Below are positions 1-60,197 of a stretch of DNA of 64,000 nt, one piece after another (within the stretch, counting starts at the first letter, position 1; each line of letters starts with the position of its first letter). The notes under the pieces are model-generated. The model had not been told where the DNA came from and did no database searches. It saw nothing but the letters and a program-made list of their open reading frames with translations. The DNA is from Planctomycetota bacterium. Lineage in GTDB: Bacteria; Planctomycetota; Phycisphaerae; SM23-33. Where the stretch lies: NCBI GenBank assembly GCA_030635145.1, contig DAOVZK010000005.1, positions 16,694 to 80,693 of the forward strand, written 5' to 3'. Made by a program: the position numbers and the translations under genes.

Positions 1-1152
1 TCGGTGTTGGAGGGCATGGTTATTGGTGCCTACGCTATCGGGGCCGACCGCGGTTATATTTACGTGCGGATGGAGTATCCGCTGGCGATTGAAAATCTTC
101 GAATCGCTATTGATCAGGCAACTCAGCGCGGGGTGTTGGGCGAGAACATACTCGGTAGCGATTTTAGCTTTAACGTGAAAATTTCGCGCGGGGCAGGGGC
201 GTTTGTCTGCGGCGAATCGACCGCACTGATGGCTTCTATCGAAGGGCTTACCGGCGAACCGCGTGCCAAGCATATCCACACCAGCGAAAAGGGCCTGTTC
301 GGTAAACCCACGAACCTCAACAACGTCGAAACCTGGGCTAACGTTCCGGTAATTATCGACAAGGGCGTCGAGTGGTACACGAGCATCGGCACGGAAAATT
401 CCAAAGGCACGAAGGTGTTTTCGCTTGTGGGTGCCATCAACAATACCGGGTTAGTCGAAGTGCCGATGGGCATTACGCTGCGGGAGATTATTTACGATAT
501 CGGCGGTGGGATTCCCAAGGGTCGTCCGTTTAAGGCTGTCCAAACCGGCGGGCCTTCCGGTGGATGCCTACCAGAAAACATGCTCGATTTACCGGTGGAT
601 TTCGATCAACTTACCGAGGTCGGGTCGATGATGGGCTCGGGCGGAATGATTGTGATGAACGACCACACATGCATGGTCGAAATCGCGCGGTACTTTACCG
701 ACTTTCTGCGGCGCGAGTCGTGCGGAAAATGCACACCCTGCCGCGAGGGCGTGCTGCGGATGTACGAAATTCTCGACAGCATCACAGCTGGGCGCGGAAA
801 GATGGAAGATATCGATCTGCTGGAGGAGATTTGCGGATACGTGCGGGACAACAGCATCTGTGGGTTAGGCAAGACCGCGGCGAATCCGACGCTCAGCACG
901 CTGCGATTTTTCCGCGATGAATACATCGCACACGTAAAAGACCACAAATGCCCCGCCGGGGTCTGCCAAGCACTGACAACATTCATCATCGACGAAAAAA
1001 CCTGCAAAGCATGCGGTGCCTGCCTCAAAGCATGCCCCGTTGAGGCAATTAGCGGCGGTGCGAAGAAAAAACCCGCGAAAATCGACCAGGACAAATGCAC
1101 CACCTGTGGCGCCTGCCGCGAGGCCTGCCTCTTTGATGCAATTATGACATAG
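1..1152 (+). CDS. NuoF-like NAD(P)H-binding flavoprotein subunit with a C-terminal 2x[4Fe-4S] ferredoxin domain (5' partial; probable electron-input module of a CODH, hydrogenase or formate dehydrogenase)
   Basis: The ORF runs off the window start. It carries NuoF/HoxF-type motifs (Gx[19 protein letters not shown]) and two CxxCxxCxxxCP ferredoxin motifs at the C-terminus. Confidence 0.8.
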
Positions 1153-1173
1153 ACGACAGTAACACAAGGAATT

Positions 1174-1407
1174 TTTAGACAGGATAACAAGATGAAAACT
1201 AAATCATGTTAATCCAAAAGAAAAAGAAGGTTCACCACAAAGAACACATAGATCGCAAAGAAAGATGTTTTTGCATGACGTTTTTCTTTTGCGTTCTCTT
1301 GCGGTGAATAATATTCGCTTACTGAAACCTGATTGCTGATAACTGAAAACTTAAAATAAATAACTATCCTGTGATCCTGTCAAAAAGATTCTTTTGATTA
1401 ACAGGAA
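1174..1407. repeat. Cluster of 'ATCCTGT'/'ACAGGAT' motifs (MITE-like element or operator array), copy 1
   Basis: Left end 'tttagacaggat' (1174-1186), right end 'ctatcctgtgatcctgtcaaaa' (1364-1385) and 'tgattaacagga' (1396-1407). The same motifs and an internal 'gatg(g)tgtttgca...ttttctttt' stretch recur at 26213-26377. Confidence 0.4.
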
Positions 1408-1426
1408 AAGGCCGTGAACAATCGAA

Positions 1427-18057: not shown

Positions 18058-18196
18058 TGTCATTGCGAGGAGCGTAGCGACGCGGCAATCTAAACGGCGG
18101 TGGTAAATAACTCCCCGCGGAGTGGGCGATGTGACCGTAGCCGATTATTGCTTCCGCTGCGAGTGGCGAGATTGCTTCGCTACGCTCGCAATGACA
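18058..18196. repeat. Palindromic 'TGTCATTGCGAG...' repeat element, copy A (two inverted arms around a roughly 70-nt spacer)
   Basis: Arm 18058-18097 and its imperfect reverse complement 18168-18196. The same arms occur inverted at 39231-39306. The element gives rise to the spurious '...RYARND...' ORFs on the track. Confidence 0.6.
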
Positions 18197-24860: not shown

Positions 24861-24999
24861 AAGATAATTCCTGTATGTTCAGTTTTTGTGACAGTTTTTC
24901 AAGGACCCATGCTCCGCAACGAACGCAAAAAACTTTGCGTTGCGACCTGTCGGCCGAATTATCAGACGCAAAGAGTTGATTCTGCGGGGCGTTAACGCT

Positions 25000-26187
25000 A
25001 TGTATTCTAATATGCTAGAACATTTCTGCAAGCAAAATCATTCGCAAGTTTCCCGCAGCGTCGGAGCGTTATACGTTCACGTGCCGTTTTGCGTGCGCAA
25101 ATGTCGATATTGCGATTTTTATTCGCAGACCGACGGCCAGGCTGCAAAGCAGCGATACGTGGCCGCTGCCATCGGCGAGCTGAAACTTAAAGGCGACGTT
25201 CTGGCAGCCCCGGCGGCGAGCATTTTTGTCGGTGGGGGGACCCCGACATCACTGGAACCTGATCTGCTGGACGAACTTTTGGCCCAGCTGCACCGCTACG
25301 CCGATGGAGAGACAGAGTTTACCGTCGAGGCCAACCCCGGAACAATCGACACCGCGACCGCCGACGTGCTGGTGCGAAATGGGGTTAATCGTGTTTCGCT
25401 GGGCGTGCAGAGTTTTGATGCGAAGTTGCTGGATGTGCTGGGGCGGATTCATACTCCGCAGCAAACGCACGAGGCGTTGCGGATTTTGCGTGGCGCGGGG
25501 GTTGGCAATATTTCGCTCGATCTGATTTACGGCATCCCGGGGCAGAGCCTGGAGATGTGGTCGCGTGACCTCGACGAAGCCCTCGCAGCCGACACCGAAC
25601 ATCTCAGTGCCTACGCCCTGAGTTTCGAGGAAAACACCCCGCTGTGGGATGATCTCGAGGCCGACCGTGTCTCGCCCGTAAATGACGAGCTTCAGCGGGC
25701 GATGTACTATCATCTGATCGAGACCACCGCCAGCAGGGGGCTTGAGCAGTATGAGATTTCCAATTTCGCAAGGGCGGGGAGACGGTGCAAGCATAATATC
25801 ACGTACTGGTTAAACAAGGGATATCTCGGGGTCGGCCCGGCCGCGGCTAGCTACATAGGCGGGCGGCGCAGCGTCAATGCCCCCGACTTGCAGGATTATC
25901 TCGAGCGAATCGAAGCAGGAACGCCGCCGCAAGCCGAGTGCGAGCAATTGGTCGGCCGATCTGAAATGGGCGAAACCCTGATGCTGCAGCTGCGTTTAAC
26001 TGAAGGTGTAAAGATTGCTTCGTTCACCAAGCGTTTTGCGGTTAGTCCCACGGAGGCCTTCCCGCGAAGCATCGGCCGATATTTGCAGTCGGGAGCGTTG
26101 GTGGAAACAAAAACGCATATTCGTTTGAGCAGGGAGCATTTTTTTACCGCTGATACGGTATTGGCGGATATATTGGCGGAAGTCTGA
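25000..26187 (+). CDS. hemW: Radical SAM heme chaperone HemW (coproporphyrinogen III oxidase-like)
   Basis: HVPFCVRKCRYCDF radical-SAM CxxxCxxC motif with a HemN-like C-terminal domain. Confidence 0.85.
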   Translation: MYSNMLEHFCKQNHSQVSRSVGALYVHVPFCVRKCRYCDFYSQTDGQAAKQRYVAAAIGELKLKGDVLAAPAASIFVGGGTPTSLEPDLLDELLAQLHRYADGETEFTVEANPGTIDTATADVLVRNGVNRVSLGVQSFDAKLLDVLGRIHTPQQTHEALRILRGAGVGNISLDLIYGIPGQSLEMWSRDLDEALAADTEHLSAYALSFEENTPLWDDLEADRVSPVNDELQRAMYYHLIETTASRGLEQYEISNFARAGRRCKHNITYWLNKGYLGVGPAAASYIGGRRSVNAPDLQDYLERIEAGTPPQAECEQLVGRSEMGETLMLQLRLTEGVKIASFTKRFAVSPTEAFPRSIGRYLQSGALVETKTHIRLSREHFFTADTVLADILAEV

Positions 26188-26212
26188 TTTATTGTAACCA
26201 TTTACGCAAAAA

Positions 26213-26377
26213 TTTAGACAGGATCACAGGATAGAATATAGGCCTAAAAAATCCTGTTAATCAGGATTAATTTTCATAGCAACTTGTATTCGTTGCGATG
26301 GTGTTTGCAATTAAGAGAGCTTATATTCTGCTTTTCTTTTTAATAATTCGTGGCTAATCCTGTAATCCTGTCAAAAG
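26213..26377. repeat. Cluster of 'ATCCTGT'/'ACAGGAT' motifs (MITE-like element or operator array), copy 2
   Basis: tttagacaggatcacaggatag (26213-26234), the palindrome atcctgTTAATcaggat (26251-26267), and ctaatcctgtaatcctgtcaaaag (26354-26377). Shares motifs and internal sequence with 1174-1407. Confidence 0.4.
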
Positions 26378-26567
26378 AGGACTTTTTAATAAAAATTGGA
26401 TTTACAAGATAAAAAGCGGGAACGGTTACAATCTGTTGAGCCGCCGCCGAAAAAAAATACTGATTATGGCTAAAAGAACCGATACAAAACTAGAGCATCT
26501 CAATTTTTCAATGCTCTAGAAGTCGTTACAAAACCTTAGACTTGACTTATCTTCATGGGAGATTAAT

Positions 26568-27782
26568 ATGCAAAAAATGCAAAAAATGCGGAAATTACAA
26601 TTCATTCTGGCGGTGTCTGTTCTTTGTGGCGGGGTTTTATTTTTACCTGAGGCTTTCGGGCAAAAGAAAGCGGCCCCAAAAAAGGCAGCAAAGGTAGAGA
26701 AGGCAGAAAACGTTCCCAAGGATGTGTTCAAAGAGATCAAAGCTCAATTTCCGCCCCGAAACATGGATCCTGTCGCACAAAAGCGAATTCTACCTGCAAG
26801 GATGCAAAAAGTTCTGGAGCTGGGGAAGGATGCGGAAACGAAATATCCCAAGGCAGAGAATCTGTATCAGGTTCAGACGATTATGCTGCACGCGGCTGGG
26901 TATCTTGCGAGGCAAAAGAATGGCAAAGTAACCGAAAAGCAATATCAGGAAATTGCCGATAAAATTCTTACCTCAAATGCGCCCGTTGAAGATAAAGTGA
27001 ATACCGAGTTTATTGTTTTGTCCCGTGAGGTGCTTGCGAACAAAATGCCTGAGCAGCAGATGGGTAAAAAGCTCGAGGGACTGGTCAAAAAGTACGAAAA
27101 AACTCCAGTAGCTCCCAAGGTGCTCATCAACGCCGTGGTTCTTTCATATCAGACAAAAAATCAAGAATTGGCCGACAAATATCTGGATATCCTTAAGAAA
27201 AAATACCCCGACAATCCGGATACGAAAGAATTAATTGCGGCGATTGATCGTATGCCCAAAGCCGGTGGTAAAACAAGTGGGAAAATCTTTGAGGCCAAAC
27301 TCAAGACCTTAGACGGAAAAACGATTACTATGCCGAAAGATACTAAGGGCAAAATAGTCGTGGTCGATTTCTGGGCCTCCTGGTGTGGGCCTTGCCGCAG
27401 GTTAATTCCCCATCTAATAAAGTTTCACGACAAGTACGCCAAAAATGCGGATGTCATGATTATCGGGATCAGCCTCGATAAGGATGAAGCGGCTATGAAA
27501 AAATATATTAAGGACGCCAAAATTCCATGGGCAATCACCTATACGGGTAAGGGCTGGGGCGATCCGACAGTTAAAAAGTATGGGATTGACGGCATTCCGT
27601 CGGTGTGGATTATCGGGAAAGATGGAAAAGTTGTCTCGACTGATGCTGCGGGCAACGAAGATAAAATTGTTGCCAAGTTACTCGCGGAAAAACCTACGAC
27701 CCCACCGGATAAAGCCGGTAAACCAGGCAAGTCCGCGTCTGCAAAAACTCCGAATAAACCAGCAGCCGATAAGGATAAATAG
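26568..27782 (+). CDS. TlpA-like thiol:disulfide oxidoreductase (thioredoxin fold, WCGPC) with a long Lys-rich N-terminal extension; secreted
   Basis: Signal peptide; FWASWCGPCR active site and a C-terminal Lys/Pro-rich tail. GGGAGA RBS. AT-richer codon usage than the rest of the window. Confidence 0.8.
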   Translation: MQKMQKMRKLQFILAVSVLCGGVLFLPEAFGQKKAAPKKAAKVEKAENVPKDVFKEIKAQFPPRNMDPVAQKRILPARMQKVLELGKDAETKYPKAENLYQVQTIMLHAAGYLARQKNGKVTEKQYQEIADKILTSNAPVEDKVNTEFIVLSREVLANKMPEQQMGKKLEGLVKKYEKTPVAPKVLINAVVLSYQTKNQELADKYLDILKKKYPDNPDTKELIAAIDRMPKAGGKTSGKIFEAKLKTLDGKTITMPKDTKGKIVVVDFWASWCGPCRRLIPHLIKFHDKYAKNADVMIIGISLDKDEAAMKKYIKDAKIPWAITYTGKGWGDPTVKKYGIDGIPSVWIIGKDGKVVSTDAAGNEDKIVAKLLAEKPTTPPDKAGKPGKSASAKTPNKPAADKDK

Positions 27783-27811: not shown

Positions 27812-28318
27812 ATGCGAATGCAAAAAATCTTGACGTTGTCGTTGATGCTGCTTCTTGTCGCTGTGATTTGCGCTGCGGGTGGGTGTAAAAAACAATCGAA
27901 GTATGCCGGGCAGGATTTTTCCGCTGATTTGACGACCCTTGATGGTAAAACGTTTAGCATTCCGCAAGATACTAAGGGCAAGGTCGTGGTCGTTGACTTT
28001 TGGGCCGCATGGTGCCCGCCTTGCCGCAAGCTGGTTCCTCATATGAAGCAGATTCACGAAAAATATAAGGACAAGGACGTCGTTATTGTCGGAATCAGCC
28101 TTGATGCCGACAAGGCGAAGCTACAAAAATTTATCGCCGACGAAAAAATGAACTGGGTGCAAACCTGCTCCTGGAAAAAATGGGAAGATCCGACTGTCCA
28201 AAAGTATGGGATTGATGGAATTCCCGCGGTGTGGGTTATCGGCAAGGACGGAAAAGTTGTTTCCACCGACGCTGCCGACGCCACCAGTGAAATTATAGAC
28301 AAGGCCCTGAAACAATAA
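27812..28318 (+). CDS. TlpA-like thioredoxin lipoprotein (WCPPC), paralog of the C-terminal half of the upstream gene
   Basis: Lipobox AAGGC; FWAAWCPPCRKL. The domain is collinear with 26568-27782 (LDGKT..PKDTKGK.VVVDFWA.WC.PCR ... YGIDGIP.VW.IGKDGKVVSTDAA). Confidence 0.8.
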   Translation: MRMQKILTLSLMLLLVAVICAAGGCKKQSKYAGQDFSADLTTLDGKTFSIPQDTKGKVVVVDFWAAWCPPCRKLVPHMKQIHEKYKDKDVVIVGISLDADKAKLQKFIADEKMNWVQTCSWKKWEDPTVQKYGIDGIPAVWVIGKDGKVVSTDAADATSEIIDKALKQ

Positions 28319-39230: not shown

Positions 39231-39306
39231 TGTCATTGCGAGCAAAGCGAAGCAATCTCATTTTCAGCCGTTTAGATTGCCGCGTCGCTACGCTCCTCGC
39301 AATGAC
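39231..39306. repeat. Palindromic 'TGTCATTGCGAG...' repeat element, copy B (inverted relative to copy A, minimal spacer)
   Basis: 39268-39306 is the exact reverse complement of 18058-18097. It is preceded by a GTCGTAGCACGAC hairpin at 39191-39203. Confidence 0.6.
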
Positions 39307-39437
39307 AAAACAGTTATCGCTTAGAGTCGGCGGGTGCCGTGGTTGCGGTGTTTGCAACCACGTTTGATCTGGGTGGCCTTCTCTTCATATTATCATGGTT
39401 ACACCCAAGGATAGAAAGGAGCGGGCAAATGATAGTT

Positions 39438-41071: not shown

Positions 41072-41379
41072 CAGCGTCCTTGTTTCGACCCGGATTGTCG
41101 CGATCATGTTCACACGTGGTTACAAACACCGCAACCACGGCACCGGCCGCCACGATAATGCAACCCGCAGATTATATCCCCACACCCCCGCAGCTGAAAG
41201 ATATTAACCGCAAAAAGCGGCGTGTGATCTTCAGTAGGCTGGCATCTTTCCCTGTGTTATTCCGGGCTTGACCCGGAATCCAGGGGACTTAGTGCGACAT
41301 GGGAAATTTCCCTGGATGCCCGATCAAGCCCCCAGCGGGGGTTGCAAAAGGCATGACAAAAAGAATCGCATGGGTTCCA

Positions 41380-59182: not shown

Positions 59183-59254
59183 TGACTCCTCGAGTAGGAC
59201 TCGAACTTACAACCTAGCGGTTAATCAGCCTGCGGCTGACTCGCTCTACCAATT
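59183..59254 (-). repeat. Degenerate duplicate of the 3' two-thirds of tRNA-Asn (att-like direct repeat of 60122-60197)
   Basis: 59183-59254 aligns base for base with 60122-60190 apart from about 6 substitutions and a 6-nt insertion, then diverges where the tRNA 5' acceptor strand would be. Confidence 0.6.
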
Positions 59255-60121: not shown

Positions 60122-60197
60122 TGGCTCCCCGAGTAGGACTCGAACCTACGACCTAGCGGTTAACAGCCGCTCGCTCTACCAATTGAGCTATCGGGGA
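60122..60197 (-). tRNA. tRNA-Asn (anticodon GUU), CCA encoded
   Basis: TCCCCGATAGCTCAATTGGTAGAGCG ... CTGTTAA anticodon loop ... GGTTCGAGTCC ... CTCGGGGAGCCA. Confidence 0.9.

Follow-up and report, generated by a model that had tools for sequence, protein, structure and literature searches.

Bacterial MITEs, such as the Correia elements of Neisseria and MITEAba12, are the described systems closest to a repeated element that occurs twice in the window, the whole stretch of 64,000 nucleotides that was analysed. Like MITEs, the element is small and non-coding, has terminal inverted repeats, and belongs to a multi-copy, intergenic and variably present family in which some copies are flanked by target duplications and a longer relative has the same ends. 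Unlike those of MITEs, its ends consist of a 7-nt unit repeated with a period of 8-9 nt and are spread over many phyla; near-perfect foldbacks and tandem arrays (as in locus L021) are frequent among the copies, and the only product of the longer relative is a PD-(D/E)XK nuclease of 125 aa, which is no known transposase. Insertion sequences of the IS66 family offer a second comparison. Their inverted repeats start GTAAGCG and yield 8-bp direct repeats (PMC11946415), an example of an end beginning GTAAGCGTCCGG is on record (PMC12888890), and IS66 relatives that carry passenger genes have been described. The subfamily in the window has outer ends that begin GTAA(G/C/T)(C/A)G and resemble those of IS66 over a short stretch, and related copies have 8-bp target duplications; the candidate duplication in the window itself has decayed. 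Unlike IS66, the element has no tnpA, tnpB or tnpC, the last of which encodes the DDE transposase.

Two further systems combine short repeats with small genes. The REP/BIME repeats associated with RAYT proteins are likewise short, palindromic and intergenic, are tied to one small nuclease-type gene family, and, as appears to be the case here, co-vary with the protein between lineages. In contrast to REP sequences, the ends of the present element are direct ACAGGAT repeats rather than palindromes and have no GTAG head, the associated nuclease is of the PD-(D/E)XK and not the HUH/Y1 type, the repeats flank the gene itself, and nearly the same repeat is found in distant phyla. Integron cassettes resemble the gene-bearing relatives in having a single small ORF and, after it, an imperfect palindrome that is conserved at its ends and varies in the middle, and in forming runs of adjacent units (L208, L230, L021). 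Unlike attC sites, the repeats have no RYYYAAC...GTTRRRY core sites, their ends being GACAGGAT...ATCCTGTC, and unlike integron cassettes the units lie dispersed over the genome and are not collected in one array. Around the locus, the called genes included no integron integrase.

A 2012 survey of PD-(D/E)XK nucleases listed the function of GxxExxY / PDDEXK_3 proteins, the family tied to the element, as unknown and noted 'multiple transfers' between divisions. In the literature that was searched, the 16-mers of the element appear in no paper, PD-(D/E)XK genes are linked to MITEs in none, and GxxExxY proteins receive only passing mentions. The heptamer-array / GxxExxY system is without description in the searchable literature, and such a parent cassette is unusual for a MITE or foldback element. 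The second copy in the window (copy 2) is probably a MITE-like, non-autonomous and gene-less foldback element of ~236 bp that comes from this family of heptamer-array nuclease cassettes.

Structure of the element and its insertion sites

The core of copy 2 (26217-26372) is bounded by the inverted 16-mers GACAGGATnACAGGAT and ATCCTGTnATCCTGTC, which lie 124 bp apart; with their immediate flanks, the left side reads TTTAGACAGGATCACAGGATAG and the right side CTAATCCTGTAATCCTGTCAAAAG. As terminal inverted repeats, the 16-nt arrays show no mismatch at either end (15 of 15 specified bases). A scan of the window for the pattern ATCCTGTNATCCTGTC, allowing up to three mismatches, returned four matches (1178-1193, 1366-1381, 26217-26232 and 26357-26372), against 1.17 in shuffles, and all four are ends of copy 1 or copy 2. 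The exact heptamer ACAGGAT/ATCCTGT occurs 12 times in the window, where 5.06 are expected and none of 100 shuffles reached 12; eight of these 12 fall within the two elements.

These results bear out most of what the initial annotation had reported of the locus. The motif cluster at 26213-26377 is indeed a second copy, the first lying at 1178-1381; the palindrome ATCCTG-N5-CAGGAT is present (ATCCTG at 26251-26256, TTAAT, CAGGAT at 26262-26267); and the distance of about 190 bp to the tlpA gene agrees with a right array that ends at 26372 and a tlpA start codon at 26568. The coordinates given there describe the core correctly; they leave out a 43-nt arm past the right array as well as the inverted repeats at the outer ends (26194-26207 and 26416-26429). 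Comparison of copy 2 with copy 1 and with a related locus, L199, reveals homology beyond the arrays, and the whole copy is about 236 bp long (26194-26429; Table 1). Its outer 14-nt inverted repeats match at 11 of 14 positions, and the arm past the right array contains a degenerate inverted heptamer pair, TTGGATTTACAAGAT, at 26396-26410. The octamers that flank the whole unit, GATTTATT and AATCTGTT, are the same at five of eight positions and differ by three transitions, a resemblance that is weak on its own.

Table 1. Features of copy 2, its flanking genes and copy 1 (window coordinates).
Feature	Position	Strand	Remarks
Upstream flanking gene, radical-SAM HemW/HemN-like, outside the element	24940-26187	+	Pfam Radical_SAM and HemN_C
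Candidate left target-site duplication, GATTTATT	26186-26193	.	Overlaps the hemW stop codon TGA (26185-26187)
Outer terminal inverted repeat, left, GTAACCATTTACGC	26194-26207	+	Pairs with 26416-26429
Left array of heptamers and its T-rich flank, TTTA-GACAGGAT-C-ACAGGAT-AG	26213-26234	+	
Leader remnant, AAAAATCCTGTTAATCAGGATTAA (holds the palindrome 26251-26267), then TTTTCATAGC	26246-26281	+	Aligns with 5' leaders of GxxExxY cassettes
Interior filler, non-coding	26282-26354	.	Position of the nuclease gene in full-length relatives
Right heptamer array, CTA-ATCCTGT-A-ATCCTGTC-AAAAG	26355-26378	+	Predicted to pair with the left array on folding back
Long arm past the right array	26379-26415	+	Homologous to the arm of copy 1 (1382-1414) and to L199 1480-1535
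Outer terminal inverted repeat, right, GCGGGAACGGTTAC	26416-26429	+	Reverse complement GTAACCGTTCCCGC
Candidate right target-site duplication, AATCTGTT	26430-26437	.	Compared with GATTTATT
Downstream flanking gene, TlpA/redoxin family, outside the element	26568-27782	+	
Copy 1, same element, same orientation	1159-1414	+	Arrays at 1178-1193 and 1366-1381

As single-stranded DNA, the 236-nt unit is predicted to form one long foldback of -34.7 kcal/mol, against -18.4 ± 3.4 kcal/mol for shuffles (z = -4.8). Stop codons occur throughout all six frames of copy 2, which contains no ORF of at least 30 aa (the longest internal ones have 20-27 aa), and a GxxExxY profile search of the window copies detected no remnant of the gene (best E = 1.1). 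Copy 1 carries a leader motif, AAATCATGTTAATCC, at 1201-1215. At first sight its interior cannot be aligned with that of copy 2, and neither a clear right end nor a convincing target duplication was found for copy 1.

Each locus can be compared with its counterpart in relatives that have the same neighbouring genes. Relatives whose TlpA proteins are 57-59% identical to that in the window retain the order FHA gene, hemW, tlpA, tlpA2, response regulator, groES. The spacer between hemW and tlpA, which measures 380 bp in the window and holds copy 2, is 97 bp long in L198, where the element is absent, and 76 bp in contig P0002, which is too short for an element. In L199 the spacer measures 409 bp and contains an element in the opposite orientation with an interior like that of copy 1 rather than copy 2, so this copy is an independent insertion into the same spacer. 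At the locus of copy 1, the junction between the NuoF-like and 2Fe-2S genes is 5 bp in L281-L283 (75% identity), 25 bp in contig P0244 and ~275 bp in the window, and alignment with the operon junction of the relatives resolves copy 1 as a clean insertion of ~265 bp. As judged from these aligned sequences, the relatives without the element show it to be an insertion at both window loci. Copies are thus found at unrelated loci, as the two in the window, and are present or absent at orthologous sites, as the empty sites in L198, P0002, L281-L283 and P0244 demonstrate.

These empty sites indicate that the repeated element was acquired by insertion. The initial annotation had raised the possibility of an acquired segment with its edge at the element. 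It is hardly credible that the element is the border of a horizontally acquired, AT-rich TlpA island. The G + C content does fall at the element, from 0.577 (25001-26000) to 0.414 (26001-27000), as had been reported. Against a border, hemW and tlpA keep their order, and the same kind of contrast is seen whether a relative lacks the element (L198, 0.459 in tlpA against 0.519 in hemW) or has it (L199, 0.458 against 0.502). The tlpA genes of the relatives also lie below hemW in G + C content, so the step is a property of the genes and not of an island border. The comparison that had been proposed as a check, namely whether the TlpA block exists in related genomes without the element, gave a positive answer in L198, a 5.3-kb contig that has the block and no element upstream of it. 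Within the block, the C-terminal part of the 404-aa TlpA gene (27305-27677) and the next gene, for a TlpA of 171 aa (27934-28303), share 73-76% identical DNA and form a tandem pair of paralogues.

In this lineage, all three insertions (window 1150-1159 and 26185-26194; L199 1473-1482) start 3-7 nt past the upstream stop codon, which may reflect a target preference. Elements insert a few bases past stop codons, and even inside operons; copy 1 stands between two subunit genes next to acetyl-CoA synthase. In the window the element would at most have brought a hairpin and possibly promoter-like sequence to the region upstream of tlpA and into a Wood-Ljungdahl-linked operon.

The array family and its GxxExxY cassettes

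The hallmark of the family, which the window copies fit, is a pair of inverted ACAGGAT arrays of two to five copies with a period of 8-9 nt and a T-rich outer flank; 110 ends yield the consensus T-T-T-(A/T)-G-ACAGGAT-n(1-2)-ACAGGAT. When one genome per species was scanned for exact matches, at least 119 loci were identified, all of them, among the matches listed, in metagenome-assembled genomes. The listed loci belong mainly to Phycisphaerae/Sedimentisphaerales, other Planctomycetota, Verrucomicrobiota, Lentisphaerota, Kiritimatiellia, Acidobacteriota, Desulfobacterales and Nitrospirota. The raw number of loci proves nothing, because by estimate ~1,100 chance matches to the 15-base pattern are expected in 596 Gb. 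Most array matches bear additional features of the family, namely the T-rich outer flank, a third repeat or a partner, and a left end is followed by a right partner 14-440 nt away for 45 of 130 ends. The interiors vary in sequence and in length (14-440 nt), and short members are near-perfect hairpins with two to five heptamers per arm. In a contig from a Deltaproteobacteria metagenome-assembled genome (L021, 1-620), at least five copies of a gene-less 112-bp unit, composed of an array, 54 nt, an array and a 26-nt junction, are arranged in tandem.

Among the matches listed, the sites of the family are intergenic and show no bias of orientation or context, and no common neighbouring gene family was found around the at least 119 loci. 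The two arms of an element share their variable spacers in 25 of 55 cases, where 11.6 are expected by chance. Such agreement fits a hairpin intermediate or homogenization of the ends, and selection for a base-paired RNA or DNA structure could also produce it. Long interiors contained no convincing ORFs, the fetched loci contained no ends 0.7-9 kb apart around a transposase as an autonomous partner would, a BLAST search of plasmids with a clean element gave no match, and no further copies were present in an additional 6.7 kb of the source genome. A phage origin was considered and rejected: 75 viral contigs match the 16-mer, which by estimate is about the level of chance, and the additional family features accompany 10 of 95 viral ends compared with 67 of 145 ends in genomes.

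Some copies have retained the marks of their insertion. In L023, perfect 8-bp duplications enclose an element whose inverted ends start GTAA (GGGCTATT, then GTAACAGTTCAGC ... GGTGAACTATTAC, then GGGCTATT), and the same is true of L066 (GTCCTTTT, then GTTACTATTCAGGTAT ... its inverted counterpart, then GTCCTTTT). Of 67 elements, 13 are flanked by exact 8-mers, where shuffled pairings gave 4.1 (maximum 12). An outer end of the type GTAAnnGTTCAC is present in L199, L023, L069, L072, L221, L240, L244 and L250; it starts GTAAGCG in L199, whose outer end reads GTAAGCGTTCACG, GTAACC in the window and GTAATAG in L023, L069, L072 and L221. These outer GTAA...GTTCAC ends define a small subfamily (~8 of 294 array ends), and most elements of the family have no inverted repeat outside the arrays.

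The small gene that abuts the arrays in L041, L079 and L018 encodes a protein of the family PF13366 PDDEXK_3 / TIGR04256, the 'GxxExxY protein'. The association was also analysed from the side of the gene, in 80 metagenomic loci that encode GxxExxY relatives (the best 80 of at least 580). Exact heptamers lie within 250 nt of the gene in 77 of these 80 loci; per kb, ACAGGAT occurs 6.7 times upstream and ATCCTGT 8.0 times downstream near the gene, compared with 0.64 farther off. The layout array-gene-array is present in 44 of the 67 loci with enough flanking sequence. In this main layout, the ORF is preceded by a T-rich flank, GACAGGATnACAGGATnnACAGGAT and a leader of ~40-60 nt that has a ribosome-binding site; 10-40 nt after the ORF come ATCCTGTnnATCCTGTnATCCTGTC and an A-rich flank. 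Full-length members measure ~0.5 kb and carry one gene, for a GxxExxY / PDDEXK_3 nuclease of 120-130 aa with a Cas4-like fold, between their arrays. Other layouts account for about one third of the gene-bearing loci, with the gene enclosed by two complete hairpin elements or by direct repeats; in these, the gene directly adjoins the right array belonging to a gene-less element upstream and precedes a hairpin with a conserved loop and another right array. Hairpins with the conserved loop (T)TCATCCGGAA were observed in L211, L213, L215, L220, L222 and L243, with stems that differ in sequence yet stay complementary. They sit downstream of GxxExxY genes as well as in upstream gene-less units and are followed by an A-rich linker and a right array; the hairpin may be a structured part of the cassette.

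The leader of these cassettes connects them to the window, both copies of which align with it. The leader remnant of copy 2 aligns with the leaders of L244, L250 and L221 (TAAATCCAGTTAATCAAAA...TTATCAyA), its palindrome at 26251-26267 corresponds to the cassette leader motif AAATCCnGTTAATCA, and TTTTCATAGC corresponds to TTATCATAGCC in L253, where it stands immediately before the ribosome-binding site. Furthermore, the cassettes L221, L240, L244 and L250 bear outer GTAAT(A/C)GTTCAC ends like those in the window. Both the aligned cassette leader and the lack of any ORF trace argue that the window copies are deletion derivatives, and the absence of a detectable GxxExxY remnant places them among gene-less derivatives rather than full cassette members. 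No GxxExxY gene was found in the ~71 kb of the source genome that were read, and a search for related viral GxxExxY loci found none.

The GxxExxY family is very large. A search returned 6,962 matches at E <= 1e-10, many of them on contigs shorter than 1.5 kb, and a profile search at E <= 0.001 returned 23,907 clusters at 50% identity. The residues E27, D66, E76 and K78 are invariant in 46 sequences; an AlphaFold model of the protein is confident (pLDDT 91.6), and a sequence search of the PDB gave no match. Compared with the Cas4 and RecB-like PD-(D/E)XK nucleases, the protein is a minimal core of 125 aa without the Fe-S cluster module and without a CRISPR context. Proteins of ~260 aa with two GxxExxY domains in tandem were also observed (P0361, P0362, P0364 and others).

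Records of isolates show arrays in the same layout as in the ACAGGAT cassettes and with a spelling that depends on the lineage. The GxxExxY gene is flanked by inverted TTCACC-(ACAGAGGAC)x3 arrays in Bacteroides finegoldii, by a (CGCGGATn)x3 palindrome in Gemmatirosa, by inverted ACACGGATTCG in Treponema saccharophilum, by 45-nt direct repeats that end TAATCCGTGyACC on a Fusobacterium plasmid, and by AATCC arrays in Persicobacter; a GGAT/ATCC core is common to most of these lineage-specific arrays. Since the spelling of the repeat changes while its position around the gene stays the same, comparison of these sequences suggests that the arrays are recognized by the cassette's own protein. In the interior of copy 1 (1232-1313) we observed a nested degenerate foldback, TTCACC-ACAAAGAAC-ACATAGATC-GCAAAGAAA ... 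TTTCTTTTGCGTTCTCTTGCGGTGAA, which resembles the TTCACC-(ACAGAGGAC)n arrays beside the GxxExxY gene of Bacteroides finegoldii (L289); similar sequences are found in L059, L204 and L033. Copy 1 also contains a run of four to five 7-nt units of the form nCTGAnn (1318-1350), and a similar run in the relative L198 (55-92) adjoins a tRNA-like sequence.

Proposed mobilization and alternative explanations

In the mechanism that we propose, the element would be moved in trans by a protein that recognizes the arrays or the outer ends, with a staggered 8-bp cut made at the target during insertion. The window copies would have kept both ends and the 5' leader of a GxxExxY cassette and lost its gene. The likeliest mobilizing partner would be the family's own GxxExxY nuclease, with an IS66-like transposase as the alternative. 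The longer relatives with the same arrays and leader, of which L221, L244 and L250 also have the outer ends, encode a GxxExxY protein that can be called a putative transposase at most. That this protein is the sole mobility enzyme, acting as a transposase or a homing nuclease, is a tentative idea with the odds somewhat against it; no PD-(D/E)XK nuclease is known to carry out complete transposition. If it were true, GxxExxY mobility would define an unrecognized class of mobile cassettes of ~0.5 kb, in which the protein recognizes lineage-specific arrays or their hairpin and also spreads the far commoner gene-less copies. The link between GxxExxY genes, flanking arrays and abundant gene-less copies that are polymorphic for insertion provides a testable idea of function for a huge family, with Bacteroides finegoldii, Gemmatirosa kalamazoonensis and Treponema saccharophilum as named cultured carriers.

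A second enzyme has to be weighed at this point. An IS66-like transposase is a candidate because IS66 ends start GTAAGCG and the insertions generate 8-bp repeats, and the subfamily in the window could be an IS66-type MITE, in which a DDE transposase encoded elsewhere in the genome acts on the GTAA ends while the arrays and the GxxExxY gene are passengers. The outer ends GTAAGCG, GTAACC and GTAATAG and the perfect 8-bp repeats of L023 and L066 would all be accounted for in this way. However, the likeness to IS66 stops at ~10 nt (in the window ends GTAACCATTTACGC and GTAACCGTTCCCGC it covers the first 7-10 nt or so), GTAA ends are absent from most members of the family, no IS66 or recurrent transposase is found near the at least 119 loci, and the gene-bearing units with GTAA ends carry only GxxExxY (L244, L221 and L250). 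Furthermore, the TTCACC of the outer end is also the terminus of the second array type beside the Bacteroides finegoldii gene, and since it recurs there the outer end may belong to the cassette system itself. We consider an IS66-type origin of the subfamily unlikely, although it deserves to be taken seriously.

Readings that place the function of the element in RNA or in regulation account for part of the data. Transcribed together with its neighbours, the element could act as a structured RNA or as a hairpin for RNA processing or stability, in which the arrays form a long stem that is a substrate of RNase III or shields the mRNA. Such a role would explain the strong foldback potential, the agreement of arm spacers above chance and the co-varying stems of the conserved-loop (TCATCCGGAA) hairpins after many GxxExxY genes; copy 1, being inside an operon, must also be transcribed. 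This reading is improbable: the window region and 17 related loci gave no Rfam match and only sub-threshold matches to microRNA hairpins, neither the sequence nor the length (14-440 nt) of the interiors is constant, the palindrome favours neither strand, orthologous sites lack the element, and target duplications and inverted ends are the products of events at the level of DNA. More improbable still is a role of the arrays in the regulation of tlpA, in which a regulator would use them as operator or promoter sites, such as direct repeats for DNA looping. Tandem 8-bp repeats do recall operators of the MetJ type, the element stands upstream of tlpA, and its outer ends, TT(G/A)GACA, resemble a -35 box. 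The empty orthologous sites largely refute such a role, for L198 lacks the element and keeps a promoter-like block (AAATTTGACTGG...GGTAAACT) that in L199 lies downstream of the element; in addition, the same element adjoins unrelated genes without a bias of orientation, and a promoter scan showed no enrichment.

Several more specific candidates were rejected. ACAGGAU resembles the CsrA consensus, and a CsrA-binding decoy RNA was discarded since the GGA motifs are paired in the foldback and the Fusobacteria variant has the complement on the coding strand. A sigma-70 promoter formed by the TTGACA-like ends would have the wrong spacing to any -10-like hexamer, and the scan was without enrichment. 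DnaA boxes were excluded because TTATCCTGT differs from TTATCCACA in the last three bases, which are critical. An invertible promoter switch is at odds with interiors as short as 14 nt and with the L199 copy, which differs outside the repeats and is therefore not a simple flip. Scans of the element with Rfam and with promoter and terminator models returned nothing relevant at its position. Elements of this type can pass for regulatory sites or island borders, and the many family members on contigs shorter than 1.5 kb may be a sign that they break metagenome assemblies.

Other repeats in the window

The window contains other repeats besides the heptamer arrays. A second, unrelated palindromic family consists of inverted pairs of the form TGTCATTGCGAG...GCAATCT at 18058-18196 and 39231-39307; one 41-nt arm is 100% identical between these sites, which lie 21 kb apart, and the core TCATTGCGAG also occurs in loci of other phyla (17 matches against 3.3 expected). 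Inverted repeats of 40 nt at 39328-39367 and 41110-41149 are 93% complementary, with ~1.7 kb between them, and possibly delimit another mobile element. In the stretch of lowest G + C content in the window (0.39-0.46, at 55-60 kb), a 42-nt sequence repeats the 3' part of tRNA-Asn with 90% identity (59183-59224 compared with 60122-60163), 939 bp from the real gene, and this partial copy looks like the footprint of a tRNA-integrated element.
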